Assembly (NCBI RefSeq): GCF_963921235.1
Contig: NW_026948140.1
Location: forward strand, 558,001 to 622,000
DNA length: 64,000 nucleotides
Source of the DNA: Mobula hypostoma
Taxonomy: Eukaryota
Direction: 5' to 3'
The notes below the pieces were generated by a model. It saw only the letters and a list, made by a program, of their open reading frames with translations. It had not been told where the DNA came from and did no database searches. This document shows positions 23,165 through 62,270 of this stretch, piece after piece (position 1 is the first letter of the stretch; every line of letters begins with the position of its first letter). A program made the translations under genes and the position numbers.

Positions 23165-23915
23165 GACTGGGTGCTGTGTTCTGTGGGTTGTGCAGTGACT
23201 GGGAGAGTCTCCAGTTTCGCCTCTCCTGTGGATTCCTCAAGGGAAAGTGCTGTAAAAACTCAGGTGCTCTCTGTTTAGTGACCTTCTCCATTTCTTGAGC
23301 CCCTAATTTTTCATTTCTATTCCTTTAATATCTAGTTAGAGATAAGGTTAGATTTCATCCTATTTCTCCTTTTAGGATTACATTGTTTAATTGTGACTTC
23401 AGTGTTCAATCTGTTGGTTCACTGCTCTGTGGGTATAAAGTGGTAGAAGCATGGGGTTAATTTATGTTGGGGTTGGGGCCTAACTGCAGTAGTCTGTGCT
23501 AGTTTTCCTAGCTTCTTGGATTTACTTTGGCTTTTGAGGACCAGGATGATGAGAGACGTGTCACTTCTGGTTAGGATGCCCCATGTTGTCATCATCTCAT
23601 TCCCCGACTTGCCTTTATTAGGATCTTCCTCCTCATTCATCGCCATTCTGGAGTTTAAGTTAAAATGGTGGAGTTATTTCTTATGTAAAGTGTTTTGGGG
23701 TTGGGTGTCTTTTTCAGGGACTGGGTGCTGTGATCTGGGGGTTGTGCAGTAGCTCATTGAGGGGTGTTAATGGGGGGGAAGGCCCCGGGGTAGAGTTAAG
23801 TAGAGTTAGAGTTAAGGCCCGAGGGTGGAGGATTCACGGCAGAGGGAGGTGAGGTGGGGTGGCAACTGGCAAAATGGTGGTGTTATTGCTTATGGATAGT
23901 GTTTTGGGGTTGGGT
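23165..23915 (-). repeat. PLE-B 3' UTR derived repeat with HHR
   Basis: Same blocks as 13696-14818. HHR remnant at 23197-23245. Confidence 0.85.
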
Positions 23916-29905: not shown

Positions 29906-31375
29906 GTACAACCCCCAGATCACAGCACCCAGTCCCTAAAAAACCTCCAACCCCAGAAGCAATAACTCCACCATTTTGCCAGTTGTCACCCCACCTTGCT
30001 TCGCCATGAATCCTCCACCCCCATTACTTAGCTCTACCCCCGGGAAATCCCCCCCCATAACACCCCTCAATGACTACTGCCCCACCCCAAGATCACAGCA
30101 CTCAGTCCCCGAAACCCCCCTCCCGACCCCAAAACACTATCCATAAGCAATGACTCCATCATTTTAACTTAAACTCCAGAATGGAGGTTAACGAGGAGGA
30201 AGATTCTAATAAAGCGAAGTCGGGGACTGAGATGATGACAACGTGGGCCAAAAACAATGTGGCAGGGTGAAGTGATACTGCACCAGTACGAGATCCACAA
30301 ACACAAGAGGGATACTTTGCCCATTGGAGAAGTGAGATTGGCAGACAATTTACCTTTAACAGTTTAAACAAACAAGGCAGGCTGGTATCCCAGCAAAAGT
30401 CAGAGGCTGCAGCGGAACTGGTCAAACGGGTTTGGTCAAGCAATGCCGAGAATGGATGGGGTGGGTACAGTGGAACATTCCACGGGGGGGGGGGGGTGGC
30501 ACAGAAACCTACCTTTAAACAGAGAGCACCTGAGTTTTTACCGCACATTCCCTTGAGGAAGCCACAGGAGAGGCGAAACTGGAGACTCTCCCAGTTACTG
30601 CACAACCCACAGATCACAGCACCCAGTCCCTAAAAAAAACCCCAACCCCAAAAACACTATCCATAAGCAATGACTCCATCATTTTAATTTAAACTCCAGA
30701 ATGGAGGTTAACGAGGAGGAAGATTCTAATAAAGCGAAGTCGGGGACTGAGATGATGACAACGTGGGCCAAAAACAATGTGGCAGGGTGAAGTGATACTG
30801 CACCAGTACGAGATCCACAAACACAAGAGGGATACTTTGCCCACTGGAGAAGTGAGATTAGCAGACAATTTACCTTTAACAGTTTAAACAAACAAGGCAG
30901 GCTGGTATCCCAGCAAAAGTCAGAGGCTGCAGCGGAACTGGTCAAACGGGTTTGGTCAAGCAATGCCGAGAATGGATGGGGTGGGTACAGTGGAACATTC
31001 CACGGGGGGGGGGTGGCACAGAAACCTACCTTTAAACAGAGAGCACCTGAGTTTTTACCGCACATTCCCTTGAGGAAGCCACAGGAGAGGCGAAACTGGA
31101 GACTCTCCCAGTTACTGCACAACCCACAGATCACAGCACCCAGTCCCTAAAAAAAACCCCAACCCCAAAAACACTATCCATAAGCAATAACTCCACCATT
31201 TTGCCAGTTGCCACCCCACCCTACCTCCCTTTGCCGTGAATCCCCCACCCCCAACACTTAAACCTACCCCCGGGCCTTTCCCCCCACAACACTCCTCAGT
31301 GAGCTATTGCCCCACCCCAAGATCACAGCACACAGTCCCTAAAAAAAAACAACCCCAAAACACATGGGCAATAAC
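29906..31375 (+). repeat. PLE-B derived tandem array (~520-bp units) with HHRs
   Basis: 30130-30650 and 30650-31170 are near-identical. HHR remnants at 30548-30596 and 31064-31113. Confidence 0.9.
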
Positions 31376-33985
31376 TCAAACACGAGGAATTCTGCAGACG
31401 CTGGAAATTCAAGCTACACACATCAAAGTTGCTGGTGAACTCAGCAGGCCAGGCAGCATCTCTAGGAGGAGGTACAGTCGATGTTTTGGGCCGAGACCCT
31501 TCGTCAGGACTAACTGAAGGAAGAGTGAGTAAGGGATTTGAAGCAACACTCACAACATGCTGGAGGAACTCAGCAGGTCAGCATCCGTGGAAAAGATCAG
31601 TCGACGTTTCGGGCCGGGACACTTCGCCGGGACTGGGTTTGAAAGTGGGAGGGGAAGGGGGAAATCCAAAATGATAGGACAAGACAGGAGGGGGAGGGAT
31701 GAAGCCAAGTGCTGGACAGGTGATTGGCAAAAGGGATATGAGAGGATCATGGGACAGGAGGCCCAGGGAGAAGGAAAAGGGGGAGGGGGGAAAACCCAGA
31801 GAATGGGCAAGGGGTATAGTCAGAGTGACAGAGGGAGAAAAAGGAGAGTGAGAGAAAGAATGTGTGTATATAAATAAATAACGGATGGGGTACGAGGGGG
31901 AGGTGGGGCATTAGCGCAAGTTAGAGAAGTCAATGTTCATGCCATCAGGTTGGAGGCTACCCAGACGGAATATAAGGTGTTGTTCCTCCAACCTGACTGT
32001 TGCTTCATCTTTACAGTAGAGGAGGCCGTGAATAGACATATCAGAATGGGAATGGGACGTGGAATTAAAATGTGTGGCCACTGGGAGATCCTGCTTTCTC
32101 TGGCGGACAGAGCGTAGCTGTTCAGCAAAATGATCTCCCAGTCTGCGTCAGGTCTCGCCAATATATAGAAGGCCACATTGGGAGTACCGGTCGCAGTATA
32201 TCACCCCAGCCGACTCACAGGTGAAGTGTCGCCTCAGCTGGAAGGACTGTCTGGGGCCCTGAATGGTGGTAAGGGAGGAAGTGTAAGGGCATGTGTAGCA
32301 CTTGTTCTGCCTTCAAGGATAAGTGCCAGAGGGAGATCAGTGGGGAGGGATGGGGGAAATGAATGGACAAGGGAGTTGTGTAGGGAGTGATCCCTGCGGA
32401 AAGCCGGGGGGGGGGGGGGAGGGAAAGATGTGCTTAGTGGTGGGATCCCGTTGGAGGTAGTGTAAGTTACGGAGAATAATATGTTGGACCCGGAGGCTGG
32501 TGGGGTGGTAGGTGAGGACCAGGGGAACCCTATTCCTAGTGGGGTGGCGGGAGGATGGGGTGAGAGCAGATGTGCATGAAATGGGGGAGATTCGTTTGAG
32601 AGCAGAGTTGATGGTGGAGGAAGGGAAGCCCCTTTCTTTAAAAAAGGACATCTCCCTCATCCTGGAATGAAAAGCCTCATCCTGAGAGCAGATGCGGCGG
32701 AGACGGAGGAATTGTGAGAAGGGGATGGCATTTTTGCAAGAGACAGGGTGAGAAGAGGAATAGCCCAGATAGCTGTGAGAGTCAGTCGGCTTATAGTAGA
32801 CATCAGTAGATAAGCTGTCTGCAGAGATAGAGACAGAAAGATCTAGAAGGGGGAGGGAGCTGTCGGAAATGGACCAGGTAAACTTGAGGGCAGGGTGAAA
32901 GTTAGAGGTAAAGTTAATGAAGTCAACGAGCTCAGCATGCGTGCAGGAAGCAGCGCCAATGCAGTGGTCGATGTAGTGAAGGAAAAGTGGGGACAGGTAC
33001 TAGAATAGGTTTGGAACATAGATTGTTTCACAAAGCCAACAAAAAGGCTAGCATAGCTCGGACCCATACGGGTGTCCATAGCTACACCTTTAGTTTGGAG
33101 GAAGTGGGAGGAGTCAAAGGAGAAATCATTAAGAGTAAGGACTAATTCTGTTAGACGGAGCAGAGTGATAGTAGAGGGGAACTGATTAGGTCTGGAATCC
33201 AAAAAGAAGCAGAGAGCTTTGAGACTTTCCTGATGAGGGATGGAAGTATATAGGGACTGGACATCCATGGTGAAAATAAAGCAGTGGGAGCCAGGGAACT
33301 TAAAATCATCCAAAACTTTAAGAGCGTGAGAAATGTCAGAAGTGACCCGATGCAGACTGGGAGATCGTTTTGCTGAACACCTACGCTCTGTCCGCCAGAG
33401 AAAGCAGGATCTCCCAGTGGCCACACATTTTAATTCCACATCCCATTCCCATTCTGATATGTCTATCCACGGCCTCCTGTACGGTAAAGAGGAAGCCACA
33501 CTCAGGTTGGAGGAACAACACCTTATCTTCCGTTTGGGTTGCCTTCAACCTGATGGCATGAACATTGACTTCTCTAACTTCCACTAGTGCCCCACCTCCC
33601 ATTCGTACCCCATCCATTATTTATTTATATACACACATTCTTTCTCTCAATCGATCTTTTCTCCCTCTGTCCCTCGGACTATACCCCTTGCCCATTCTTG
33701 GGGTTTTTTCCCCCTCTCACCCTTTGCCTTCTCCCTGGGCCTCCTATCCCATGATCCTCTCATATCCCTTTTGCCAATCACCTGTCCAGCTCTTGGCTCC
33801 ATCCCTCCCCCTCCTGTCTTCTCCTATCATTTTGGATCTCCCCCTCCCCTTCCCACTTTCAAATCTCTTACTAGCGCTTCCTTCAGTTAGTCCTGATGAA
33901 GGGTCTCGGCCCGAAACGTCGACTGTACCTCTTCCTAGAGATGCTGCCTGGCCTGCTGTGTTCACCAGCAACCTTGACGTCTGTG
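31376..33985 (-). mobile_element. PLE-A copy with inverted 3' segment (33340-33985)
   Basis: FTMDVQSLYTSIP, QTKGVAM and GIY-YIG on the minus strand. The plus-strand copy of the GIY-YIG end and tail mirrors 31430-32155. Confidence 0.92.
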
Positions 33986-33999
33986 GGCAATAACTCCAC

Positions 34000-34305
34000 C
34001 ATCCAGAACGAGGGGTCCCAGTTTGAGGATAGAGGGGAAGCCTTTTAGGACCTAGATTAGGAAAAACTTCTTCACATAGAGAGTGGTGAATCTGTGGAAT
34101 TCTCTGCCACAGGAAACAGTTGAGGCCAGTTCATTGGCTATATTTAAGAGGGAGTTAGATACGGCCCTTGTGGCTCAAGGCATCAGGGGGTATGGAGGGA
34201 AGGCTGGTACAGGGTTCAGAGTTGGATGATCAGCAATGATCATACTGAATGGCGGTGCAGGCTCGAAGGGCCAAATGGCCTACTGCTGCACCTATTTTCT
34301 ATGTT
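34000..34305 (+). mobile_element. CR1 3' end
   Basis: RKNFFT-RVVNLWNSLP coding followed by the tail ending cctattttctatg. Copies at 41404-41705 (-), 44205-44525 (+) and 51040-51355 (-). Confidence 0.88.
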
Positions 34306-37300
34306 TTAACTTGAACTCCAGAATGGCAGTTAACGAGGAGGAAGGCCAAATAAAGACAAGTCAGTAACTGAGATGATGAGAATGTGGGCCAAAAGCAAGT
34401 TGGCAGGGTGAAGTGATACTGCATCTCCAGTACGAGATCCACTAACACTAGAGGGATATTTTCCCTACTGACTGCATACTCGTATCCTAACCAGAAGTGA
34501 CACATCCCTCATCATCCTGGTCCTCAAAAGCCAAAGTAAATCCATGAAGCTAGGAAAACGAGCACAGTTTACTGTGGTTAGGCCCCAACCCACACATCAA
34601 TTAACCACAAGCTGCTACCACTTTCTACCCACAGAGCAGTGAACCAACAGGTTGAACACTAAAGTCACAATTAAAAATGTAATCGTAAACGGAGAAATTG
34701 GATGAAATCTAATCTTAACTCTAGCTAGATATTAAAGGAATAGAAATAAAAAATTAGGGGCTCAAGGAATGGAGAAGATCAGGAAATAAATAGGAAAGTG
34801 AGATTAGCGGACCATTTACCTTTAACATTTTAAACACACAAGGCAGGCCTGTATCCCAGTAACAGTCAGGGGCTGCAGCGGAACTGGACAAACAGGTTTG
34901 GTAAAGCAATGCCGAGAATGGGTGGGGTGGGGGATAGGGTGGAACATTCCAGAGAGGGGAGACACAGAAACCCACATTTAAACAGAGCAACACAAATATA
35001 AAATGCTGGTGAATGCAGCAGGTCAGGCAGCATCTATAAGAAGAGGTACAGTCGACGTTTCGGGCTGAGACCCTTCGTCAGGACTAGAGAGCACCTGAGT
35101 TTTTACAGCACATTTCCTTGAAGAAGCCACAGGAGAGGCGAAACTGTAGACTCTCCCAGTCACTGCACAACCCACAGATCACAGCACCCAATCCATAAAA
35201 AAAACCCCAACCCCAAAACACTATCCATAAGCAATAACATAACCATTTTGCCAGTTGCCACCCCACCCCACAACCCTTTGCTGTGAATCCTCCACTCCCA
35301 TTACTTAATTCTACCCTCGGGCCTTCCCCCGTCCCATAACACCCCTCAGTTAGCGACAGCACAACCCCCAGGTCGCAGCACCCAGTCCCTGAAAAAGACT
35401 TACATAAGAAATAACTCCACCATTTTAACTTAAACTCCAGAACGGAGGTTAACGAGGAGGAAGATCCTGGTAAAGGGAAGTCGGGAACTGAGATGATGAC
35501 AACGTGGGCCAAAAACAAAGTGGTAGGGTGCAGTGATACTGCATCTTCAGTACGAGATCCACAAGAGGAATACTTTGCCAACTGGAGAAGTGAGATTAGC
35601 GGACAATTTACCTTTAACGGTTTAAACACACAAGGCAGGCCGGTATCCCAGCAACAGTCAGGGGCTGCAGCAGAACTCGACAAACAGGTTTGGTAAAGCA
35701 ATGCCGAGAATGTGTGTGTGTTGGGGGGGGGAATAGGGTGGAACATTCCAGAGGGGGGAGACAGACAAACCCACGTTTAAACAGTGAGCACCTGAGTTTT
35801 TACCGCACATTCCCTTGAGGAAGCCACTGGAGAGGCAGAACTGGAGACTCTCCCAGTCACTCAACAACACCCAGTCCCTAAAAAAACCCCAACCCCAAAA
35901 ACACTATCCATAAGCAATAACTCCATCACTTTGTCAGTTGCCACCCCACCCCACCTCCCTTTGCCGTGAATCCTCCACCCCCATTACTTAACTCTATGCC
36001 CGGACCTTCGCCCCCCCCCCAATAACACCCCTCAATAAGCTACTGCACAACCCCCAGATCAGAGCATCCAGCCCCTGAAAAAGACTCCCAACCCCAAAAC
36101 ACTCTACATAAGAAATAACTCCACCATTTTAACTTAAACTCTGGAACGCAGGTTAACGAGGAGGAGGATCCTAATAAAGGGAAGTCAGTAACTGAGGTGA
36201 TGAGAATGTGGTGGCAGGGTGAAGTGATACTGCATCTCCAGTACGAGATCCACAAACACTAGAGGGATATTTTGCCCATTGCCTGCATACTCGCATCCTA
36301 AGCAGAAGTGACACGTCCCTCATCATCCTGGTCCTTAAAAGCCAAAGTAAATCCTTCTTCTTCTTTTAAATCTTTTTATTGAGTAAGTATACAAAAAAGG
36401 TAAGCCATATAAACATTAATACAATGTTAAAGTATAATAAAATTCCAAAAGGTAACAATACCAAAAGGAAAATACTACAAACAATGTAATTTAAGCATAA
36501 GAAACCAAGATAACATAATAGTATACTAAATTTTATATATATCAATGGAAAAAAAAAGAAAAAAAAACCCCCCAAAAAAAAACCCACCGTGCAGCTAACT
36601 AAAAGCAAGGCAAAGCAATGGGCTAACTTGAAACCAAACAGAGTTAAACTTAAAATCACGTCCTCAATCCCGACCTCCATTAAAAACAGTGAAAAAAAAA
36701 ACAAGAAGGGTAAATATTACATTAAATGAAAATATCGAATAAAAGGTCCCCAAATCTGTTCAAATTTAAATGAAGAATCATAAAGGTTACTTCTAATTTT
36801 CTCCAAATTCAAACATAAAATCGTCTGAGAAAACCAAAAAAAGGTAGTTGGAGCATTAAGCTCTTTCCAATGTTGTAAAATACATCTTTTCGCCATTAAA
36901 GTAAGAAATGCAATCATTCTACGGGCTGAAGGGGAAAGATTACTAGAAATTTTAGGTAGTCCAAAGATAGCAGTAATAGGGTGAGGAGAGATATCTATAT
37001 TTAATACCTTAGAAATAATATTGAAAATATCTCTCCAAAAAGTTTCCAAAGTAGGGCAAGACCAAAACATATGAGTTAAAGAGGCTATCTGCCCCGAACA
37101 TCTATCACAGAAAGGATTAATATGCGAGTAAAAACGCGCTAACTTATCTTTGGACATATGTGCTCTATGAACCACTTTAAATTGAATTAGGGAATGTTTA
37201 GCACAAATAGAGGAAGTATCAAAGTAAATCCAAGAAGCTAGGAGAACTATCACAGACTACTGCGGTTAGGCCCCAACCTGAACATAAATTAACCACAAGC

Positions 37301-38335
37301 TTCGACCACTTTCTACCCACAGAGCAGTAAACCAACAGGTTGAACACTAAAATCACAATTAAACAATGTAATCCTAAATGGAGAAATAGGATGAAATCTA
37401 ATCTTAACTCTAACTAAATATTAAAGGAATAGAAATGAAAAATTAGGGGCTCAAGGAATGGAGAAGGTCACTAAACAGAGAGCACCTGAGTTTTTACAGC
37501 ACTTTCCCTTGAGGAAGCCACAGGAGAGGCGAAACTGGAGACTCTCCCAGTCACTGCACAACCCACAGATCACATCAACCAGTCTCTGAAAAAAACCCCA
37601 ACCCCAAAACACTATCCATAAGCAATAACACAACCATTTTAACTTAAACACCAGAACGGAGGTTAACGAGGAGGAAGATCCTGGAAAAGGGAAGTCGCGG
37701 ACTGAGATGATGACAACGTGGGCCAAAAACAATGTGGCAAGGTGAGGTGATACTGCATCTCCAGTACGAGATCCACAAACACAAGAGGGATACTTTGCCC
37801 ACTGGAGAAGTGAGATTAGTGGACAATTTACCTTTAACAGTTTAAACAAACAAGGCAGGCCGGTATCCCAGCAAAAGTCAGGGGCTGCAGCGGAACTGGT
37901 CAAACGGGTTTGGTCAAGCAATGCCGAGAATGGATGGGGTGGGTACAGTGGAACATTCCACGGGGGGGGGTGACACAGAAACCTACCTTTAAACAGAGAG
38001 CACCTGAGTTTTTACCGCACATTCCCTTGAGGAAGCCACAGGAGAGGCGAAACTGGGGGACTCTTCCAGTTACTGCACAACCCACAGATCACAGCACCCA
38101 GTCCCTAAAAAAAACCCCAACCCCAAAAACACTATCCATAAGCAATAACACAACCATTTTGCCAGTTGCCATCCCACCCTACCTCCCTTTGCCGTGAATC
38201 CTCCACCCCCAACTCTTAACTGTACCCCCGGGCCTTTCCCCCCACAACACTCCTCAGTGAGCTATTGCCCCACCCCAAGATCACAGTACACAGTCCCTAA
38301 AAAAAAAATCAACCCCAAAACACATAGGCAATAAC
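34306..38335 (+). repeat. PLE-B derived mosaic array (interrupted by L1 at 36355-37219)
   Basis: Permuted UTR blocks with HHR remnants at ~35113, 35809, 37503 and 38021. Confidence 0.88.
36355..37219 (-). mobile_element. 5'-truncated L1 insertion with 12-bp TSD
   Basis: Open ORF2 C-terminus (CDRC..SLTHMFWSCP). AATAAA and an A/GAA tail. CAAAGTAAATCC at both 36343-36354 and 37220-37231. Confidence 0.92.
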
Positions 38336-39575
38336 TCAAACACGAGGAATTCTGCAGATGCTGGAAATTCAAGCTACACACATCAAAATTGCTGGTGAAT
38401 GCAGCAGGCCAGGCGGCATCTCTAGGAAGAGGTACAGTCGACGTTTCGAGCCGAGCCCCTTCATCAGGACAAACTGAAGGAAGAGCTAGTAAGAGATTTG
38501 AAGCAACACTCACAACACGCTGGAGGAACTCAGCAGGTCAGCATCCGTGGAAAAGATCAGTCGATGTTTCAGGCCGGGACACTTCGTCAGGACTGGGTTT
38601 GAAAGTGGGAGGGGGAGAGGGAAATCCAAAATGATAGGACAAGACAGGAGGGGGAGGGATGAAGCCAAGAGCTGGACAGGTGATTGGCAAAAGTGATATG
38701 AGAGGATCATGGGACAGGAGGCCCAGGGAGAAGGAGAAGGGGGAGGGGCGAAAAACCCCGAGGATGGGCAAGGGGTATAATCAGAGGGACAGAGGGAGAA
38801 AAGAGAGAGAGAGAGAAAGAATGTGTGTATATAAACAAATAATGGATGAGGTACGAGGGGGAGGTGGGGCTTTAGCGGAAGTTAGAGAAGTCAATGTTCA
38901 TGCCATCAGGTTGGAGGCTACCCAGACGGAATATAAGGTGTTGTTCCTCCAACCTGACTGTGGCTTCATCTTTACAGTAGAGGATGCCGTGAACAGACAT
39001 ATCAGAATGGGAATAGGACGGGGAATTAAAATGTGTGGCCACTGGGAGATCCTGCTTTCTCTGGCGGACAGAGCGTAGCTGTTCAGCAAAATGATCTCCC
39101 AGTCTGCGTCAGGTCTCACCAATATATAGAAGGCCACATCAGGAGCACCGGATGCAGTATATCACCCCAGCCGGCTCAAAGGTGAAGTGTCACCTCAGCT
39201 GGAAGGACTGTCTGGGGCCCTGAATCACCTGTCCAGCTCTTGGCTCCATCCCTCCCCCTCCCATCTTCTCCTATCATTTTGGATCTCCCCCTCCCCCACA
39301 CACTTTCAAACCCAGTCCTGACGAAGCGTTCTGGCCCGAAACGTCAACCGATCTTTTCCACGGATGCTGCCCGACCTGCTGAGTTCCTCCAGCGTGTTGT
39401 GAGTGTTGCTTCAAATCTCTTACTAGCTCTTCCTTCAGTTTGTCCTGATGAAGGGGCTTGGCTCGAAACGTTGACTGTACCTCTTCCTAGAGATGCCGCC
39501 TGGCCTGCTGCGTTCACCAGCAATTTTGATGTGTGTAGCTTGAATTTCCAGCATCTGCAGAATTCCTCGTGTTTG
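38336..39575. mobile_element. Short PLE-A copy with inverted tail
   Basis: Minus-strand GIY-YIG and tail at 38336-39225. 39226-39575 is the inverted copy of 38336-38683. Confidence 0.88.
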
Positions 39576-41403
39576 AGTTATTGCCTATGTGTTTTGGGGT
39601 TGTTTTTTTTTAGGGACTGTGTGCTGTGATCTTGGGGTGCGGCAATAGCTCACTGAGGAGTGTTGTGGGGGGAAGGACTGGGGGTAGAGTTAAGTGTTGG
39701 GGGTGGAGGATTCACGGCAAAGGGAGGTAGGGCGGGGTGGCAACTGGCAAAATGGTTGTGTTATTGCTTATGGATAGTGTTTTTGGGGTTGGGGTTTTTT
39801 TTAGGGACTGGGTGCTGTGATCTGTGGGTTGTGCAGTAACTGGGAGAGTCTCCAGTTTCGCCTCTCCTGTGGCTTCCTCAAGGGAATGTGCGGTAAAAAC
39901 TCAGGTGCTCTCTGTTTAAAGGTAGGTTTCTGTGTCACCCCCCCCCCCGTGGAATGTTCCACCGTACCCACCCCACCCATTCTCGGCACTGCTTGACCAA
40001 ACCCGTTTGACCAGTTCTGCTGCAGCCCCTGACTTTTGCTGGGATACCGGCCTGCCTTGTTTGTTTAAACTGTTAAAGGTAAATTGTCCGCTAATCTCAC
40101 TTCTCCAGTGGGCAAAGTATCCTTCTTGTGTTTGTGGATCTCGTACTGGAGATGCAGTATCACTTCACCCTGCCACTTTGTTTTTGGCCCACATTGTCAT
40201 CATCTCAGTCCGCGACTTCCCTTTTCCAGGATCTTCCTCCTCGTTAACCTCCGTTCTGGAGTTTCTGTTAAAATGGTGGAGTTATTGTTTATGGATAGTG
40301 TTTTGGAGTTGGAGGTCCCTTTTTGGGACTGGGTACAGTGAACTGGGGGTTGTGCAGTAGCCCATTGAGGTGTATTATTGCGGGGGAGTGCCCGGGGGTA
40401 GAGTTAAGTAATGGGGGTGGAGGATTCATGTCGAAGGGAGGGGTGTGGGGTGGCAACCCGCAAAATGGTTATGTTATTGCTTATGGATAGTGTTTTGGGG
40501 TTGGGGTTTTTTTAGGGATGGGTGCTGTGATCTGGGGGTTTTAAAGGTGAATGTGAGAGTCTCCAATTTCACCTCTCCTGTGGCTTCCTCAAGGGAATGT
40601 GCTGTAAAAACTCAGGTGCTCTCTAGTCCTGACAAAGGGTCCCAGCCCGAAACGTCAACTGTACCTCTTCTTATAGATGCTGCCTGGCCTGCTGCATTCA
40701 CCAGCAATTTATATTTGTGTTGCTCTGTTTAAACATGGGTTTCTGTGTCTCCCCTCTCTGGAATGATCCACCCTATCCCCACCCCACCCATTCTCGGCAT
40801 TGCTTTACCAAACCTGTTTGTCCAGTTCCGCTGCAGCCCCTGACTGTTACTGGGATACAGGCCTGCCTTGTGTGTTTAAAATGTTAAAGGTAAATGGTCC
40901 GCTAATCTCACTTTCCTATTTATTTCCTGATCTTCTCCATTCCTTGAGCCCCTAATTTTTCATTTCTATTCCTTTAATATCTAGCTAGAGTTAAGATTAG
41001 ATTTCATCCTATTTCTCCGTTTACGATTACATTTTTAATTGTGACTTTAGTGTTCAACCTGTTGGTTCATTGCTCTGTGGGTATAAAGTGGTAGCAGCTT
41101 GTGGTTAATTGATGTTCGGGTTGGGGCCTAACCACAGTAAACTGTGCTCGTTTTCCTAGCTTCTTGGATTTACTTTGGCTTTTGAGGACCATGATGATGA
41201 GGGATGTGTCACTTCTGGTTAGGATACGAGTATGCAGTCAGTGGGGAAAATATCCCTCTAGTGTTTGTGGATCTCGTACTGGAGATGCAGTATCACTTCA
41301 CCCTGCCAACTTGCTTTTGGCCCACATTCTCATCATCTCAGTTACCGACTTGTCTTTATTTGGCCTTCCTCCTCGTTAACTGCCATTCTGGAGTTTAAGT
41401 TAA
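39576..41403 (-). repeat. PLE-B derived array, inverted orientation
   Basis: Reverse complement of the blocks at 37635-38335 and 44526-46550. Confidence 0.88.
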
Positions 41404-41724
41404 AACATAGAAAATAGGTGCAGGAGTAGGCCATTCGGCCCTTCGAGCCGGCACCGCCATTCAGTATGATCATGGCTGATCATCCAACTCTGAACCCTGT
41501 ACCAGCCTTCCCTCCATACCCCCTGATCCCTTTAGCCACAAGGGTCATATCTAACTCCCTCTAAAATATAGCCAATGAACTGGCCTCAACTGTTTCCTGT
41601 GGCAGAGAATTCCACAGATTCACCACTCTCTGTGTGAAGAAGTTTTTCCTAATCTCGGTCCTAAAAGGCTTCCCCTATATCCTCAAACTGTGACCCCTCA
41701 TTCTGGATGGTGGAGTTATTGCCT

Positions 41725-44185
41725 ACACACGTCAAGGTTGCTGGTGAATGCAGCAGGCCAGGCAGCATCTCTAGGAAGAGGTTCAGTTGACGTTTCGGGC
41801 CGAGACCCTTCGTCAGGACTAACTGAAGGAAGAGTGAGTAAGGGATTTGAAAGTGGGAGGGGGAGGGGGAGATCCAAAATGATAGGAGAAGACAGGAGGG
41901 GGAGGGATGGAGCCAAGAGCTGGACAGGTGATTGGCAAAAGGGATATGAGAGGATCACGGGACAGGAGGCCCAGGGAGAAGGAAAAGGGGGAGGGGGGAA
42001 ACCCCAAGAATGGGCAAGGGGTATAGTCAGAGGGACAGAGGGAGAAAAGAGAGAGAGTGAGAAAGAATGTGTGTATATAAATAAATAACGGATGGGTTAC
42101 GAGTGGGAGGTGGGGCATTCGCGGAAGTTAGAGAAGTCAATGTTCATGCCATCAGGTTGGAGGCAACCCAGACGGAATATAAGGTGTTGTTCCTCCAACC
42201 TGAGTGTGGCTTCATCTTTACAGTAGAGGAGGCCGTGGATAGACATATCAGAATGGAAATGGAATGTGGAATTAAAATGCGTGACCATTGGGAGATCCTG
42301 CTTTCTCTGGTGGACAGAGCGTAGCTGTTCAGAAAAATGATCTCCCAGTCTGCATCAGGTCTCGCCAATATATAGAAGGCCACATCGGGAGCACCGGACG
42401 CAGTATATCACCCCAGACGACTCACAGGTGAAGTGTCGCCTCAGCTGGAAGGACTGTCTGGGGCCCTGAATGGTGGAAAGGGAGGAAGTGTAAGGGCATG
42501 TGTAGCACTTGTTCCGCTTACAAGGATAAGTGCCAGGAGGGAGAACAGTGGAGAGGGATGGGGGGAACGAATGGACAAGGGAGTCGCGTAGGGAGCGATC
42601 CCTGTGGAAAGCGGGGATGGGGGACGGAAAGATGTGCTTAGTGGTGCGATCCCATTGGAGGTGGCGGAAGTTACGGAGAATAATATGTTGGACCCGGAGG
42701 CTGGTGGGGTGGTAGGTGAGGACCAGGGGAACCCTATTCCTAGTGGGGTGGCGGGAGGATGGAGTGAGAGCAGATGTGCGTGAAATGAGGGAGATGCGTT
42801 TGAGAGCAGAGTTGATGGTGGAGGAAGGGTAGCCCCTTTCTTTAAAAAAGGAGGACATCTCCCTCATCCTGGAATGAAAAGATTCATCCTGAGAGCAGAT
42901 GCGGCAGAGACGGAGGAATTGCGAGAAGGGGATGGCATTTTTGCAAGAGACAGGGTGAGAAGAGGAATAGCGTAGATAGCTGTGAGAGTCAGTAGGCTTA
43001 TAGTAGACATCAGTAGATAAGCTGTCTCCAGAGATAGAGACAGAAAGATCTAGAAAGGGGAGGGCGGTGTCAGAAATAGACCAGGTAAACTAGAGGGCAG
43101 GGTGAAAGTTAGAGGTAAATTTAATGAAGTCAACGAGCTCAGCATGCGTGCAGGAAGCAGCGCCAATGCAGTCGTCGATGCAGCGAAGGAAAACTGGGGG
43201 ACAGGTACCAGAATAGGTTTGGAACATAGATTGTTTCACAAAGCCAACAAAAAGGCTAGCATAGCTCGGACCCATACGGATGTCCATAGCTACACCTTTA
43301 GTTTGGAGGAAGTGGGAGGAGCCAAAGGAGAAATCATTAAGAGTAAGGACTAATTCCGCTAGACGGAGCAGAGTGGTGGTAGAGGGGAACTGATTAGGTC
43401 TGGAATCCAAAAAGAAGCGGAGAACTTTGAGACCTTCTTGATGGGGGATGGAAGTATATTGGGACTGGACATCCATGGTGAAAATAAAGCAGTGGGGGCC
43501 AGGGAACTTAAAATCATCGAAAAGTTTAAGAGCGTGTGAAGTGTCAGAAGCAACCTGATGCAGACTGGGAGATCGTTTTGCTGAACACTCACACTCTGTC
43601 CGCCAGAGAAAGCAGGATTTCCCATTGTCTATACATTTTAATTCCACATCCCATTCCCATTCTGATATGTCTATCCACAGCCTCCTCTACTGTAAAGATG
43701 AAGCCACACTCAGGTTGGAGGAACAACACCCTATCTTCCGTTTGGGTTGCCTCCAACCTGATGGCATGAACATTGACTTCTCTAATTTCTGCTAATGCCC
43801 CACCTCCCACTCGTACCCCATCCGTTATTTATTTATATACACACATTCTTTCTCTCAATCGATCTTTTCTCCCTCTGTCCCTCTGACTATACCCCTTGCC
43901 ATCCTCGGGGCTTTTTCCCCCCTCCCTCTTTTCCTTCTCCCTGGGTCTCCTGTCCCATGATCCTCTCTTATCCCTTTTGCCAATCACCCGTCCAGATCTT
44001 GGCTCCATCCCTCCCCCTCCTGTCTTCTCCTATCATTTTGGATCTCCCCCTCCCACTTTAAAATCTCTTACTAGTGCTTCCTTCAGTTAGTCCTGATGAA
44101 GGGTCTGGGCCCAAAACGTCGACTGTACCTCTTCCTAGAGATGCTGCCTGGCCTGCTGTGTTCACCAGCAACCTTGACGTGTGTA
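41725..44185 (-). mobile_element. PLE-A copy with inverted 3' segment, duplicate of 31430-33985
   Basis: ORFs 43090-43647 (RT) and 42355-42867 (CKRNKCYTC linker, VIYCVRCSRCGLLYIGET). Same inversion junction as ~33340. Confidence 0.92.
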
Positions 44186-44525
44186 GGCAATAACTCCACC
44201 ATCCAGAACGAGGGGTCACAGTACCAGAACGAGGGCTCATAGTTTGAGGATAAAGGGGAAGCCTTTTAGGACCGAGATTAGGAAAAACTTCTTCACACAG
44301 AGAGTGGTGAATCTGTGGAATTCTCTGCCACAGGAAACAGTTGAGGCCAGTTCATTGGCTATATTTTAGAGGGAGTTAGATATGACCCTTGTGGCTAAAG
44401 GGATCAGGGGGTATGGAGGGAAGGCTGGTACTGGGTTCAGAATTGGATGATCAGCCATGATCATACTGAATGGCGGTGCCACCTCGAAGGGCCGAATAGC
44501 CTACTGCTGCACCTATTTTCTATGT

Positions 44526-47500
44526 TTTAACTTAAACTCCAGAATGGCAGTTAACGAGGAGGAAGGCCAAATAAAGACAAGTCGGTAACTGAGATGATGA
44601 GAATGTGGGCCAAAAGCAAATTGGCAGGGTGAAGTGATACTGCATCTCCAGTACGAGATCCACAAAGACTAGATGGATATTTTGCCCACTGGAGAAGTGA
44701 GATTAGCAGGCAATTTACCTTTAACAGTTTAAACAAACAAGGCAGCCCGATTTCCCAGCAAAAGTCTCCAGTACGAGATCCACAAACACTGGAGGGATAT
44801 TTTCCCCACTGACTGCATACTCGTATCCTAGCCAGAAGTGACACGTCTCTCATCATCCTGGTCCTCAAAAGCCAAAGTAAATCCAAGAAGCTAGGAAAAC
44901 GAGCACAGTTTACTGTGGTTAGGCCCCAACCCGAACATCAATTAACCACAAGCTGCTACCACTTTATACCCACAGAGCAGTGAACCAACAGGTTGAACAC
45001 TAAAGTCACAATTAAAAATGTAATCGTAAATGGAGAAATAGGATGAAATCTAATTTTAACTCTAGCTAGATATTAAAGGAATAGAAATGAAAAATTAGGG
45101 GCTCAAGGAATGGAGAAGATCAGGAAATAAATAGGAAAGTGAGATTAGCGGACCATTTACCTTTAACATTTTAAACACACAAGGCAGGCCTGTATCCCAG
45201 CAACAGTCAGGGACTGCAGCGGAACTGGACAAACAGGTTTGGTAAAGCAATGCCGAGAATGGGTGAGGAGGGTAGGGTGGAACATTCCAGAGGGGGGAGA
45301 CAGACAAACCCATGTTTAACAGAGAGCATCTGAGTTTTTCCAGCACATTCCCTTGAGGAAGCCACAGGAGTCGCGAAACTGGAGACTCTCCCAGTCACTG
45401 CACAACCCCCAGATCACAGCACCCAGTCCCTAAAAATACCGCCAACTCCAGAACACTATCCATAAGCAATAACTCCACCATTTTAACTTAAACTCCAGAA
45501 TGGAGGTCAACAAGGAGGAAGATGCCTTTAAAGGCAAGTCGGGGACTGAGATGTGGGCCAAAAATAAAGTAGCAGGGTGAAGTGATACTGCATCTCCAGT
45601 ACGAGATCCACAAAGACTAGATGGACATTTTGCCCACTGGAGAAGTGAGATTAGCAGGCAATTTACCTTTAACAGTTTAAACAAACAAGGCAGCCCGATT
45701 TTCAGCAAAAGTCAGGGGCTGCTGCGGAACTGGACAAACAGGTTTGGTAAAGCAATGTCGAGAATGGGTGGGGTGGGGGATATGGTGGAACATTCCAGAG
45801 AGGGGAGACACAGAAACCCACGTTTAAACAGAGCAACACAAATATAAATTGTTGGTGAATGCAGAAGGCCAGGCAGCATCTATAAGATGAGGTACAGTTG
45901 ACGTTTCAGGCTGAGACCCTTCGTCAGGACTAGAGAGCACCTGAGTTTAAACAGAGAGCACCTGAGTTTTTATAGCACATTCCCTTGAGGAAGCCACAGG
46001 AGAGGCAAAATTGGAGACTCTCGCAGTCTCTTTTAAAACCCCCAGATCACAGCACTCAGTCCCTAAAAAAATCCCAACCCCAAAACACTATCCATAAGCA
46101 ATAAATCCACCATTTTGCAGGTTGCCACCCCACACCCCTCCCTTCGCCGTGAATCCTCCACCCCCATTACTTAACTCTACCCCTGGGCACTCCCCCCCAT
46201 AACACACCTCAATGGGCTACTGCACAACCCCCAGATCACTGTACCCAGTCCTAAAAAAGGACCTCCAACTCCAAAACACTATCCATAAACAATAACTCCA
46301 CCATTTTAACTTAAACTCCAGAATGGAGGTTAATGAGGAGGAAGATCCTGGTAAAGGGAAGTCGGGAACTGAGATGATGACAACGTGGGCCAAAAACAAA
46401 GTGGTAGGGTGCAGTGATACTGCATCTTCAGTACGAGATCCACAAGAGGAATATTTTGCCCACTGGAGAAGTGAGATTAGCAGACAATTTACCTTTAACG
46501 GTTTAAACACACAAGGCAGGCCGGTATCCCAGCAACAGTCAGGGACTGCAGCGGAACTCGACAAACAGGTTTGGTAAAGCAATGCTGAGAATGTGTGTGT
46601 GTGCGGGGCGGGACAGGGTGGAACATTCCAGAGGGGGGAGACAGACAAACTCACGTTTAAACAGAGAGCACCTGAGTTTTTACCGCACATTCCCTTGAGG
46701 AAGCCACTGGAGAGGCAGAACTGGAGACTCTCCCAGTCACTCAACAACACCCAGTCCCTAAAAAAACCCCAACCCCAAAAACACTATCCATAAGCAATAA
46801 CTCCATCATTTTGTCAGTTGCCACCCCACCTCCCTTTGCCATGAATCCTCCACCCCCATTACTTAACTCTATCCCCAAACCTTCCCCCCAATAACACCCC
46901 TCAATAAGCTACTGTACAAACCCCAGATCAGAGCACCCAGTCCCTGAAAAAAATCCCAACCCCAAAATATTATCCATAAGCAATAACTCCACCATTTTAA
47001 CTTAAACTCCAGAACGAGGGTGAACGAGGAGGAAGCTCCTAATAAAGGCAAGCTGGGGACCGAGATGATGACAACGTGGGCCAAAAACAAAGTGGCAGGG
47101 TGAAGTGGTACTGCATCTCCAGTACGAGATCCACAAACACTGGAGGGATATTTTGCACACTGACCACATACTCGCATCCTAACCAGAAGTGACACATCTC
47201 TCATCATCCTGGTCCTCAAAAGCCAAAGTAAATCCAAGAAGCTAAGAAAACTAGCACAGACTACTGCGATTAGGCCCCAACCTGAACATAAATTAACCAC
47301 ATGCATCTACCACTTTATAGCCACAGAGCAGTGAACCAACAAGTTAAACACTAAAGTCACAATTAAACAATGTAATCCTGAAAGGAGAAATAGGATGAAG
47401 TCTAATCTTAACTCTAACTAGATATTAAAGGAATACAAATGAAAAAAATCGTGGCTGAAGGAATGGAGAAGGTTACTAAACAGGGAGTACCTGAGATTTT

Positions 47501-48108
47501 ACAGCACATTCCCTTGAGGAAGCCACTGGAGATGCGAAAATGGAGACTCTCCCAGTCACTGCACAACCCCCAGATCACAGCAGTCAGTCCCTAAAAAAAC
47601 TCCCAACTATCCATAAGCAATAACTCCACCATTTTAACTTAAACACCAGAATGGAGGTTAACGAGGAGGAAGATCCTAATAAAGGCAAGTCGGGGACTGA
47701 GATGATGACAATGTGGGCCAAAAACAAAGTGGCAGGATGAAGTGATACTGCATCTCCAGTACGAGATCCACAAACACTAGATGGATATTTTGCCCACTAG
47801 TGAAGTGAGATTAGCGGACAATTTACCTCTAACAATTTAAACAACCAAGGCAGGCCTGTATCCCAGCAACAGTCAGGGGCTGCAGCGGAACTCGACAAAC
47901 AGGTTTGGTAAAGCAATGATGAGAATGTGTTGTGGGGGTAGGGTGGAACATTCCAGAGGGGGGAGACACACAAACCCATGTTTAAACAGAGAACCCCTGA
48001 GTTTTTACAGCATATTCCCTTGAAGAAGCCACAGGAGAGGCGAAACTGGAGATGCTCCCAGTCACTGCACAACCCCCAGATCACAGCACTCAGTCCCTAA
48101 AAAAACTT
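44526..48108 (+). repeat. PLE-B derived mosaic array with HHRs
   Basis: HHR remnants at ~45347, 45978, 46688, 47508 and 48014. Partly duplicates 34306-36354. Confidence 0.88.
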
Positions 48109-54678: not shown

Positions 54679-55401
54679 TGTTTATTCCAAAGGAAAGGAT
54701 AACCTTCTTAGTTTCCAGTTGTGGTTCTAACTTTGTCAGGATAGCAGTGGCATGGGTGAATTTGGCTCCCGGAAAGCTGTCCAACTGAACATCCTTATTA
54801 GGGCATCTTTTGATCCTGTAAATGTTCGAGTCCCCTATAACTAGTATAGGTTTAAGGGGCCTTAGTTCCCAAGTTACATTTTTCTGTTTAGAGTGAGGAT
54901 GCCTCGTTATTTGACCCTCCTGGTTGTTGCAAATAGAGGTTACCTGTCCTCTTGTTTCTCCCATGTCCTCCGACTCTCAGGCTGTGTGGTTCCCTGGGGT
55001 GGAAGACTTGCTCGGTCTTCGTGTACTGGCTCCCCTTGTCTGTATGCCCATCCGCACTGGTGTGGGGTGGGGTGCTGATTCCTCAGAGTCTAGGGTCGGA
55101 GAGGCCGTGGGGGCGGCGGGCTGGGGCTCCCCTGCTCCTAGGTTGGATTGCGTCTTCTCCGAGGGGCTCATGGGTGGGGAGGGGCTCACCTGGCGTCTTC
55201 TCTGTTCCTGTGATTGGGGCAGTGGGGCCGCATCGGCGTCGAGTGGGTTAACTAGCTCCGGCGCCCTCCCGTGGACGGCGCCGGAACTCCCACTGCACGT
55301 GCTGTTCTCAGGACCTGTTGGTCTGAGACAGTCCCGCAGCAGAACTACCGGACTCAAGTTCGTTTTACTCGTCGCCGACGGACGGGGTACAGCTTGAGCG
55401 G
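54679..55401 (-). mobile_element. PLE-B ORF1 internal fragment (linker plus SGNH N-half)
   Basis: Matches 59510-60304 apart from an internal indel. Confidence 0.92.
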
Positions 55402-55430
55402 TTAGGGTTAGGGTTAGGGTTAGGGTTAGG
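55402..55430 (+). repeat. Interstitial vertebrate telomeric repeat (TTAGGG)4-TTAGG at a PLE-B junction
   Basis: Direct read: ttagggttagggttagggttagggttagg. Confidence 0.95.
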
Positions 55431-55869
55431 ATGCGGGCAGTGGGCAAAATATCCTTCTAGTGTTTGTGGATCTCGTACTGGAGATGCAGTATCACTTTAC
55501 CCTGCCACTTTGTTTTTTGCCCACGTCAGCATCATCTCGCTCCCCACCTTTCCTTTACTGGGATCTTCCTCCTCTTCAACCTTCATTCTGGAGTTTAAGT
55601 TACAATAGTGGAGATATTGGCTATGGATAGTGTTTCGGATTTGGGGTCTTTTTTATAGGGATTGTGTGCTGTGAACTGGGGGTTGTGCGGTAGCTAATTG
55701 ACGGGTGTTGTGGGGAGGGACATGCCCGGGGGTAGAGTTAGGTAATGGAGGTTGAGGATTCACGGTGAAGGGAGGTGAGGTGGGGGTGTCCCCTGCAGTT
55801 GGGGGGAGGGCTGAAATAGGAGCCTAGCTGCTGGTGATATTGGGCGAGTTTGGCTCCTTGATGGGGTAA

Positions 55870-56492
55870 GGGCTTGGGTTTATGGGGGTGTGTAGCAGGG
55901 TTGGAGATGTTAGATTTAGGGGTAGGGCAAAGGACTATTATATAAGCCCTTTAGTGTGGTGTGATTTGGGTTATTTGGGGTGCTGTCCGGTTCAGTTGGC
56001 GTGCGCAGTCCCTTGGAAATTAGGATTAGGGTTAGTGTCAGGGCTGGGGTTAGGATGCGAGTATGCGGGCAGTGGGAATTTGGCCCCCTGCTGGGGTGAG
56101 GGTTTGGGTTTATGGGGGTGTGTAGCACGGTTGGAGGTGTTAGGTTTAGTGGTATGGCAAAGGACTATTATTGAAGCCCTTTAGTGTGGAGTGGTTTGGG
56201 TTATTTGGGGTGCTGTCCAGTTTAGTTGGGGTGCACAGTCCATTGGAAATTAGGGTTAGGATTAGTGTCAGGGCTGGGGTTAGGATGCAAGTATGCGGGC
56301 AGTGGGAATTTGGCCCCTTGCTGGGGTGAGGGTTTGGGTTTATGGGGGTGTGTAGCACGGTTGGAGGTGTTAGGTTTAGTGGTAGGGCAAAGGACTATTA
56401 TGTAAGCCCTTTAGTGTGGTGTGGTTTGGGTTATTTGGGGTGCTGTCTGGTTTAGTTGGGGTGCCCGGTCCATTGGAAATTAGGGTTAGGGT
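55870..56492. repeat. 230-bp tandem repeat (~2.7 units) within the PLE-B 3' UTR
   Basis: tatgggggtgtgtagca at 55881, 56111 and 56341. Single-copy in the 62271-63457 UTR. Confidence 0.9.
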
Positions 56493-57035
56493 TTAGTTGG
56501 GGTGTGTGGTCCTCCGGATGTTAGGATTAGGTTGGGGGGGTAGGGTTGAGGGGGGCCCGCTGGGCAGTGGGAGGTATAACTGGTGATGTGGGGTGAGTTT
56601 GCCCCTCTGGCGAGAAGAGGATCTGTGTTTATGGGGTGTGAAGATATCAGGTTTCAGGGCAGGGTCATGTGCTGGGGATGTATTCTTCCCCATGGGGGAA
56701 GCGGGGAAGTTGGGGCAAGTGCTGTGTCTGGATTAAACCGGTCGTTATGTGTCTGTTCTTCCTAGTGGTTATCTCCTGTAGCGTTATAATTCCTAGTTTT
56801 ACTCCTCTCTACTTGGGGAATTAGGTTCCGTTCTGGGGCCTAGTTGTTAGGCTCTATTTCCAAAGTAAGACGAACCTTTCCTATTTAATGGTCCCCTGTC
56901 TTAATTTGTTTCAGGGTGGGTGACTGAAGGGGATCTTCCCCTTCTTCCCTACTCTAATTTTCTCAATTTTTTTAAAATTACAGGGTGCAGTGTTGGCCCT
57001 TCGGTGAGTACATTTTATGTTGCTGGCCTGGTTTT

Positions 57036-59797: not shown

Positions 59798-59809
59798 GTC
59801 CTCCGACTC

Positions 59810-60988: not shown

Positions 60989-61131
60989 CGTTAAAGTAAG
61001 ACAATAATCAGAAAACTACAGATGAAGTCCACTTAATTAATGTCCTTAGCGCTTGTTCTTCGTTTTGGGTTCCGTGATTTCGACTCCTGCGAATTGCCTT
61101 TAACGAAGCGTATTGCCTTCCATAAAGCGTA

Positions 61132-61190
61132 TTTCCCGACTGGGAGAGTCACCAGTTTCGCCTGTCTCTTTGGCTTCCTCATGGGGAATT
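61132..61190 (-). ncRNA. Type I hammerhead ribozyme motif of PLE-B
   Basis: Minus strand: uuccc-c-AUGAGGA-A-GCC(aaagagaca)GGC-GAAA-CUGG(ugacucuc)CCAG-UC|gggaa. Stems I, II and III all pair and there is a GUC cleavage triplet. The core deviates from CUGANGA. Confidence 0.75.
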
Positions 61191-62263: not shown

Positions 62264-62270
62264 TTAGGGG

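Follow-up and report, generated by a model that had tools for sequence, protein, structure and literature searches.

Recurrent breaks at the predicted hammerhead cut site of a Neptune-like Penelope element from Mobula hypostoma

Introduction

The reverse transcriptases (RTs) of Penelope elements form the sister group of telomerase, and attachment to telomeres has been described for those Penelope clades that have no endonuclease. Endonuclease-bearing Penelope-like elements include the Neptune clade (PMC8557442, PMC3846280), which has a CX2-5CxxC linker in common with Nematis (PMC8557442); an esterase is known in Neptune-like elements of fish and mollusc (PMC5408684). The function of the hammerhead ribozyme in Penelope elements was termed unclear by Craig et al. 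(PMC8557442). In Poseidon of the anole, the sole element of this kind to be reconstituted, cleavage was dispensable and in vivo ends were not found: no RNA-seq reads start or stop at the cut site, and insertion in vitro persisted in ribozyme mutants (PMC11167929).

Here we analyze a stretch of 64,000 nucleotides from Mobula hypostoma (contig NW_026948140.1, positions 558,001 to 622,000), referred to as the window. At 29906..48108 it holds a local array, on both strands, of non-coding units that consist of a 3'UTR block, a spacer and the 5' part of a hammerhead. The array alone is an ordinary dead repeat. Its units break at the predicted scissile position, and this break, together with three others in the genome, may be a DNA record of a ribozyme working in an animal.

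The parent element and its hammerhead motif

The parent of the array is a two-ORF Neptune-like Penelope element with an endonuclease. ORF1 (59225..60988, minus strand) ends in a C-terminal SGNH/GDSL esterase-like domain (PF13472, E 5e-4, under the curated cut-off). The window copy has premature stops at 60296 and 59810, where most other copies have sense codons; the idea that ORF1 conserves an in-frame TGA was rejected, as six of the ten rows listed, some of them for loci that overlap, have CGA there. Immediately ahead of the ORF1 stop lies TTTAAAC (59228..59234, minus strand), which we take to be a slippery heptamer motif and which is a candidate -1 frameshift site linking ORF1 to the RT frame. 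ORF2 (57036..59303, minus strand) comprises a Penelope-type RT, a C-x4-C-x2-C linker, seen as CEVGNCRAC in three window copies, one as CEVENCRAC, and a GIY-YIG endonuclease. Homologs carry both PF00078 and PF01541. We call the element Neptune-like, an assignment drawn from these motifs and from fish homologs at 45-49% identity, not from a reference tree.

The long 3'UTR (55418..57035, minus strand) contains 230-nt internal repeats, holds an ACCGCAC/ACTGCAC site at 55691 that recurs below as a junction partner, and ends at CATCCTAACC. A (CCCTAA)n run (55400..55430, minus strand) separates the 3' terminus of one copy from the 5'-truncated next copy. On the other side, an upstream tandem copy (62262..64000, minus strand), made of the endonuclease end and the 3'UTR, ends in CCTAACC (62269) plus an extra CCTAACC and is followed by a 5'-truncated ORF1 fragment. 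The element has its main 3' terminus at CCUAACC, which precedes the cut site by 555 nt. The ribozyme site is a minor 3' terminus only, the main one being tied to telomeric repeats. The 555-nt spacer from the CCTAACC terminus to the cut site (61138..61692, minus strand) is part of the pseudo-LTR and may act as a promoter. A relative at locus L110, 44% identical to the P0002 query, shares this layout and has a hammerhead core of different sequence in the matching place, and CCCTAA runs follow the ORF in relatives from other animals (L110, L111, L112, L114).

The hammerhead itself is seen as a read-through motif at 61131..61190 (minus strand), with a predicted cut between 61138 and 61137. Judged from its sequence, the parent motif is of type I, and self-cleavage after H17 is predicted. 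The core elements CUGANGA, GAAA and NUH occur in this order in L011 and L018, two copies outside the window that are fully canonical (CUGAGGA-A, CGAAA, GUC). Stem I is 7 bp long in L011, L017 and L018, and the other stems, read from the alignment, are GCC/GGC and ACUGG/CCAGU. In minimum-energy folds stem I appears and the full three-way junction does not, and an Rfam search gave no hammerhead match in the window, in two short stretches or in the L110 motif; the hammerhead call rests on the core motif and on stems judged by eye. Core position 3 is A in the 61138 copy and in ten others, and the window hammerhead is therefore probably impaired. The original prediction had called this copy (at 61132) intact. 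The array family has U, not C, at the same position.

Junctions at the cut site

Two ribozyme sequences taken from the window served as BLAST queries, with the window itself and 30 loci of the genome as targets, and 16 ribozyme-bearing copies were found in the window. The sole read-through copy is the one at 61138 on the minus strand (...CCCAGTC|GGGAAAT), while the other 15 break after hammerhead position 17 (GUC/GUU) and share one 3'UTR site as their partner. Their junctions lie at 14191, 23197, 39838 and 40549 on the minus strand and, on the plus side, at 30596, 31113, 35161, 35858, 37552, 38071, 45396, 46028, 46738, 47557 and 48063. In the original listing of these copies, some coordinates mark the junction itself and the rest lie about 48 nt before it.

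After the junction the sequence continues as ACTGCACAA(C/T)CC in 11 of the 15 copies, as ACTCAACAAC with a small deletion in two, and in a diverged form, (A/T)C(C/T)TTTAAAACC, in two; this continuation maps to the parent 3'UTR at 55691/62544. Paired with their own downstream sequence, all 15 copies have a stem I of 0 bp, and with GGGAAAT, the strand of the read-through copy, they form 5-6 bp, which identifies ACTGCAC as the derived state. The same pairing test rules out a new stem I formed with ACTGCAC. The four long copies placed in a tree form a clade of their own (support 100/100), and the 15 copies are therefore scored as one event. Much of the original prediction thus holds: it had described the switch at the scissile position in 13 copies (missing 40549 and 46028), the loss of the 3' strand of stem I and a single founding junction, and the ancestral state that it had allowed for ACTGCAC is not borne out by the pairing.

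Outside the array, three of 20 ribozyme-bearing copies break at position 17 (L028, L029 and L030), each time with a different partner. Together with the window event there are four junctions with four partners, two in the 3'UTR and two in the RT. They are independent and fall into more than one clade, L028 being placed with the read-through copies L011 and L018 (support 92/90). All four breaks occur in lineages whose stem I is in register. Position-17 breaks are found in three of seven copies with a 7-bp in-register stem I and in none of 13 shifted copies (Fisher p = 0.03), the latter having a shifted stem with A, G or U at position 3 and, being related (nine in one clade), not counting as independent trials.

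The cut site accounts for three of ten 3'-side breaks counted by hand in the 705 nt after CCTAACC, with the discovery event excluded. This count is based on the rows listed, with the stretch ref 61692-61656 seen only in part, and leaves out foreign-insertion breaks after which the element resumes, diverged sister-family rows whose alignment ends near ref 61650, and a 5'UTR duplication at 60967. Two apparent ends near the cut were rejected: the 'tail' 24 nt beyond it in L013 and L014 is an insertion of another abundant Penelope family, after which the element resumes, and the 152-nt 5'UTR duplication is not an RNA 5' end at cut+1, since its restart lies about 14-19 nt further on. Among the rows listed for contigs of uncertain RNA status from four runs, no cut-site joint or loose end was found, and two contigs cross the site, an outcome that weighs neither way.

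Association with telomeres

Fifteen of 30 element clusters lie no more than 100 kb from a scaffold end, an enrichment that carries a caveat because assemblies also break at scaffold ends, and 13 of these 15 have their 5' end outward. At the 199-Mb C12 end, a terminal TTAGGG array of about 480 nt adjoins an element copy truncated inside the RT and caps it. Truncated copies at L012, L015 and L030 are likewise capped by telomeric runs, and polarized terminal arrays of 5'-truncated copies with telomeric caps are present. Telomeric repeats occupy the last 100 bases in just three of 20 contig ends inspected. Earlier descriptions of telomere-associated Neptune families of this kind may exist in Arkhipova 2006 or in Repbase reports.

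Explaining the breaks

We consider it probable that the Penelope RT sometimes jumps onto ribozyme-cut RNA ends and thereby leaves position-17 junctions, and that the array goes back to one such retrotransposition accident of a telomere-associated Neptune-like element. In the normal cycle that we envisage, tandem element copies would be transcribed, and a telomeric G-strand, provided by a chromosome end or by an endonuclease nick in TTAGGG repeats, would prime the RT by pairing with the internal CCUAACC at the 3'UTR end. The RT would proceed toward the 5' end with frequent early stops, and an early-stopped end would gain a telomeric-repeat cap before a further copy joins it. Where the RNA is uncut or re-ligated, the RT would cross the ribozyme into the upstream spacer and produce read-through copies. 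Part of the transcripts would be cleaved by the hammerhead after GUC; a stalled cDNA end, or the free end of a truncated copy, could then anneal by 0-4 nt to the cut 3' end, and continuation of the RT on the cut RNA would yield DNA that reads spacer, ribozyme and GUC, directly followed by internal element sequence. One junction of this kind, GUC|ACTGCAC, would later have been multiplied to the 15 copies. Recurrent breaks with different partners are what the capture of ribozyme-cut 3' ends predicts, and this prediction is supported, if by four events, which leaves us inclined toward capture with moderate confidence.

It is less likely, though by no means negligible, that cleavage played no part and that the breaks arose by template switching or DNA repair, guided either by AGT(C) microhomology or by the foot of the stem III hairpin on its 3' side, whose position at the cut site would be fortuitous; the array would then be a duplicated deletion product. 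A second recurrent break site at about ref 61318, after AGT/AGTC, carries two independent breaks (L029 and window 44765) with no ribozyme core visible there. Because these two breaks likewise follow AGT, the switch could be driven by sequence, and the excess at the cut site, with p = 4e-5 for +/-2 nt against a uniform null, weakens to p = 0.005-0.10 once the null is conditioned on the AGT(C) preference. Microhomology of 1-4 nt is present at three of the four cut-site junctions, six of nine bases match at L030, and cut-site ends were not found in another element (PMC11167929). Against this stand the window junction, where strict microhomology is absent (the native context being AGCT|), and the 13 shifted-core copies, which have the same stem III and AGTC and never break at the cut site. 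Moreover, all four overlaps stop at position 17. At L028, the AATC of the partner replaces AGTC up to exactly this position, as expected if a primer had annealed to an RNA end over 4 nt.

A still less probable course is that cleavage is real and the joint was made on RNA, with the cut end, which bears a cyclic phosphate, ligated to a broken transcript of the element at its 5'-OH. Such ligation would produce either a chimeric RNA or an RNA mini-circle (about 830 nt); reverse transcription from CCUAACC would turn it into the first tandem units, and the retrozyme would be stillborn. The long units of the window (14818-13702 and 44765-45639) are head-to-tail permutations that retain CCTAACC, as expected from more-than-unit copying of a small circle, and circle intermediates have been proposed (PMC4209133, PMC7229834). 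The L028 overlap, however, is better explained by annealing of a DNA primer than by end-to-end ligation, only one of the four junctions is tandem, and later amplification carried foreign insertions along.

Amplification of the array

The units of the array are tandem, non-coding derivatives of the Penelope pseudo-LTR. About 9.4 of the 18.2 kb derive from the parent element (29908-31359, 34304-34942, 35088-36353, 37220-38337, 39575-40622, 40793-41405, 44525-45756 and 45946-48105), and the units are interleaved with foreign retroelements. A short unit of about 520 nt (30326..30846, plus strand) consists of a spacer remnant, the hammerhead 5' part (to 30596) and the ACTGCAC 3'UTR block, its CCTAACC site having been lost by an internal deletion (ref 62291>61391). 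A long unit of about 830-880 nt (44765..45639, plus strand, junction 45396) keeps a CCTAACC-like site and the whole 555-nt spacer. Two units on the minus strand lie outside the array: a long one at 13702..14818 (junction 14191), which joins a 5'-truncated RT-EN fragment (13695-12522) via CCTAAC at 13702, and one at 23165..23914 (junction 23197).

The array copies lie within direct and inverted duplications of 1.3-2.9 kb, which include nested foreign retroelements at 86-94% identity. Genome copy counts are lower bounds; among the 40 candidates scored, out of 330, the 520-nt unit has its ribozyme half nowhere but in this window, apart from one 64-nt match on C2. Local duplication together with foreign elements, at the one locus found among these candidates, means that the array is not a retrozyme family; it is made of dead, locally duplicated descendants of one junction, shaped by duplication, inversion and deletion at the DNA level. 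That the units belong to a non-autonomous, retrozyme-like family with present or recent activity, mobilized as RNA, is highly improbable and largely refuted: tandem pseudo-LTR units of 520-880 nt do fall within the size range of animal retrozymes (10.64898/2026.07.22.740005), but none of the consecutive array units, in pairs or longer runs, has a complete hammerhead, stem I being absent from 15 of 15 copies, the priming site is missing from the short unit, foreign elements are nested in the duplicated blocks, and spread of units to new loci through RNA was not found among the candidates scored. The original prediction of a fossil of ribozyme-cut ends therefore survives in one half, the recurrence at three further loci matching the expectation of capture, and fails in the other, the retrozyme-like amplification.

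Implications

Tentatively, the telomeric and cleavage evidence can be joined: a vertebrate Neptune-type element that keeps its GIY-YIG endonuclease might transpose onto telomeres, its hammerhead might cut in the germline and the ends be captured. The RT would then be primed by TTAGGG on the internal CCUAACC, the junctions would record cleavage in vivo, and the clade would link endonuclease-bearing elements with telomeric, telomerase-like ones, a combination that we hold to be possible, somewhat short of probable. If it is true, the four junctions are a genomic record of in vivo cleavage by a Penelope hammerhead, and an endonuclease-bearing family under a vertebrate telomere offers a tractable model between two modes of transposition. 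Junctions at the scissile position that are limited to lineages with an in-register stem I also provide a cheap genome-mining test for any assembly.

Comparison with known systems

Neptune elements resemble the parent in their RT, C-x4-C-x2-C linker and C-terminal GIY-YIG domain, in their SGNH/GDSL esterase-like domain, in partial tandems that act as pseudo-LTRs, and in a type I hammerhead with an extra base between positions 9 and 10.1 (PMC4209133). In the descriptions consulted, endonuclease-bearing elements insert inside chromosomes with a (TA)n or microsatellite bias; the parent, in contrast, is polarized at scaffold ends, terminates in CCTAACC and has telomeric-repeat caps.

These latter features are shared with Athena, Terminon and Coprina, which have a reverse-complement telomeric stretch at their 3' terminus (PMC6431247, PMC8557442), 5'-truncated copies with telomeric caps in head-to-tail subterminal chains, a hammerhead, and an ORF1 set off by a frameshift. 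They have no endonuclease, whereas the parent has GIY-YIG motifs. Their telomeric stretch lies directly downstream of the hammerhead, whereas the CCUAACC of the parent lies 555 nt upstream of the cut, and the parent has a vertebrate host. Animal non-LTR retrozymes, like the array, consist of non-coding tandem pseudo-LTR units with a hammerhead (PMC7229834; 10.64898/2026.07.22.740005). They need complete ribozymes in consecutive units and yield circular RNAs, whereas the array units have no 3' strand of stem I and were amplified locally at the DNA level.

Poseidon of the green anole has, like the parent, a main 3' terminus that is internal and not the ribozyme cut, and an RT able to cross the ribozyme (PMC11167929). 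Initiation takes place downstream of the ribozyme in Poseidon, whereas in the parent it would take place upstream, at a site complementary to the telomere. Finally, in vivo ends at the cut site were not found for Poseidon, whereas the parent has left four junctions there in the genome.

The array and its founding junction

Within the window, 15 of the 16 ribozyme-bearing copies end after position 17, the hammerhead cut-site nucleotide, which confirms the predicted break at the cut site. All 15 run on into one site in the 3' UTR of the parent element (ACTGCAC), or into a degraded form of it. Their stem I 5' strand forms 5-6 bp with GGGAAAT, the continuation of read-through copies, and 0 bp with their own; ACTGCAC is therefore not the ancestral state, an alternative that had been raised with the original prediction and can be ruled out. 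From the same pairing, array units would be incapable of cutting themselves.

Descent of many copies from one founding junction is likewise borne out. In a tree with 15 other copies, the four long window copies that were tested group together as a separate clade (100/100). The ribozyme-containing half of the 520-nt unit matches in the window only, apart from one 64-nt match on scaffold C2, a distribution that is a lower bound because 40 of 330 candidates were scored. CCTAACC, the usual 3' terminal motif of the parent, is gone from the short unit. Array copies sit within duplicated blocks of 1.3-2.9 kb, some direct and others inverted, with 86-94% identity, which carried nested foreign retroelements along (e.g. 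31574-34470 versus 41759-44691). We conclude that the array is a single event and an ordinary dead repeat. A single insertion of a second, abundant Penelope family lies just 5' of the array's ribozyme and was later duplicated (about 34988-35088, 40625-40725 and 45833-45932); the family is also inserted at an identical base, 24 nt past the cut, at two loci elsewhere, L013 and L014. The window further holds a minus-strand C2H2 zinc-finger gene exon (6184-6957; 7 fingers scored) and a gypsy-type integrase remnant (25111-26842).

The parent element and its ribozyme

The parent lies on the minus strand of the window, on a 729-kb scaffold (C46) of a 3.48-Gb genome; judging by its repeats and zinc-finger content, this is probably a cartilaginous fish. 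From the predicted cut site it comprises a 150-nt leader directly after the cut, ORF1 with an esterase-like end (PF13472 match at E 5e-4, below cut-off), TTTAAAC (59228-59234) immediately before the ORF1 stop, in a register that would allow a -1 frameshift into the RT frame, then RT with a C-x4-C-x2-C linker and GIY-YIG motifs, a 1.6-kb 3' UTR terminating in CATCCTAACC, and a 555-nt spacer followed by the hammerhead. Its linker and esterase-like end point to a Neptune element (PMC8557442, PMC3846280, PMC5408684). A protein search with 8000 candidates scored gave at least 1512 relatives at E <= 1e-20; among the 120 matches listed, the four named are from bony fish (45-49% identity). Many copies (L002, L003, L006, L008, L010, L012, L014) share a tandemly duplicated stretch of 152 nt in the 5' leader.

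The parent motif has a hammerhead core and, like the Penelope ribozymes of PMC4209133, one additional base between positions 9 and 10.1; Rfam did not score it as a hammerhead. The window read-through copy carries A at core position 3, and the canonical hammerheads are those of L011 and L018. The commonest subfamily (61181-61190 and ten other copies) combines this A with a shifted stem I, so its ribozyme may already have been impaired when it spread.

A telomeric 3' end

Contexts of the CCTAACC site comprise 27 distinct cases: 15 lead into spacer, six into telomere-like repeats and six into other DNA (one pattern). The main 3' end of the parent is telomeric, away from the ribozyme cut site. Genome-wide, 125 matches to the terminal motif were counted, and the 100 listed form 37 clusters. 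Seven of these clusters, on scaffolds that are small or of unmeasured length, were excluded. Of the remaining 30, on scaffolds of known length of at least 47 Mb, 15 are no more than 100 kb from a scaffold end, against an expected fraction of 0.0014, and 13 of the 15 have the 5' end outward (p = 0.004). As a caveat, only 3 of the 20 inspected contig ends carry telomeric repeats in the last 100 bases, and many finish in satellite sequence. At the right end of C12 (199 Mb; L115), a terminal TTAGGG array adjoins a copy truncated inside RT and 95% identical to the window element, and spacer-truncated copies at L012 and L015 read across the ribozyme and are capped by telomeric runs. One locus (L030:2544-3091) starts with about eight copies of the 55-nt stretch that precedes CCTAACC, spaced by 2-4 CCCTAA units; either initiation was aborted and capped again and again, or a minisatellite arose later. 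Of five distant relatives examined, four have CCCTAA runs 3' of the ORF; one, L110, also shows the two-ORF layout and, some 400 nt past the runs, a hammerhead core.

A subtelomeric tandem array (L116, C18:6000-15000) consists of internally deleted parent copies of about 2.5 kb, each terminating in CCTAACC and CCCTAA repeats. Among interstitial clusters, 10 of 15 lie at 0.40-0.61 of scaffold length (C1, C2, C5, C9, C12, C18, C21, C36); such mid-scaffold clusters may lie at centromeric regions or at the sites of ancient end-to-end fusions.

Recurrent junctions and their origin

Outside the array, genome searches found at least 20 ribozyme-bearing copies, of which three break at position 17 and the others, 17 in number, read through. 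The partners are two different places within RT (L029, L030) and a 3'UTR-type repeat (L028). Overlap with the partner is 0 nt in the window, 0-1 at L030, 2-3 at L029 and 4 with one substitution at L028, and terminates at position 17 in every junction. Junction-bearing copies are not a single clade, L028 grouping with the read-through L011 and L018 (92/90). The three outside junctions belong to mid-scaffold interstitial clusters.

Template jumping onto RNA 3' ends is a known activity, and ends with cyclic phosphates can be ligated. We consider it probable that telomere-primed initiation, partial ribozyme cleavage, capture of cut ends and later DNA duplication together produced these junctions. 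Normally, initiation would be internal and telomere-primed at CCUAACC; part of the transcripts would be cleaved by the ribozyme, a stalled cDNA would occasionally capture a cut RNA 3' end, and one captured product would later have multiplied by DNA duplication. Counting by hand the breaks on the 3' side over the 705 nt that follow CCTAACC, with the discovery event excluded, gave ten, three of them at the cut site (p = 4e-5 under a uniform null). Position-17 breaks occur in 3/7 copies with a 7-bp in-register stem I versus 0/13 shifted-stem copies, whose position 3 is A, G or U (p = 0.03), although these 13 are related to one another.

The main rival, template switching driven by sequence or hairpin without cleavage, appears unlikely. 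Two other independent breaks share one spacer site near 61318, after CAGCAA(C/A)AGT and ~180 nt upstream of the cut (L029:594-616 and window 44749-44765, after AGT(C)); an AGT(C)-biased null gives p = 0.005-0.10 for the cut-site breaks; and in the anole element, in vivo ends at the cut site were absent and cleavage proved unnecessary in vitro (PMC11167929). These points weaken the cut-capture reading, and in the hand-counted breakpoints the excess at the cut site stands against uniform breakage but softens under AGT(C) bias. A mini-circle formed by RNA-level ligation, with the cut end joined before copying, is more doubtful still. An active retrozyme is highly improbable: a retrozyme by definition has complete ribozymes in successive units (bioRxiv 10.64898/2026.07.22.740005; PMC7229834), so the array, which lacks these and whose copies lie in local duplications with foreign retroelements nested inside, is not one, and the proposed retrozyme-like amplification is not supported.

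Comparison with known systems

In the literature covered, with key subscription papers and Repbase outside it, we found neither a report of genomic breaks falling on the cut site of a Penelope hammerhead nor an endonuclease-bearing Neptune family under vertebrate telomeres. Craig et al. mention a Neptune-like shrimp element without endonuclease (PMC8557442), and a study of sturgeon remarks in passing on decayed Penelope elements with GIY-YIG that have telomere-like repeats at their borders (PMC12031113). The GIY-YIG-bearing parent family, polarised at scaffold ends and TTAGGG-capped, may outweigh the array in importance. According to PMC6431247 and PMC8557442, the endonuclease-less Athena, Terminon and Coprina also attach to telomeres and form capped, 5'-truncated arrays, with their telomeric stretch just downstream of the ribozyme.
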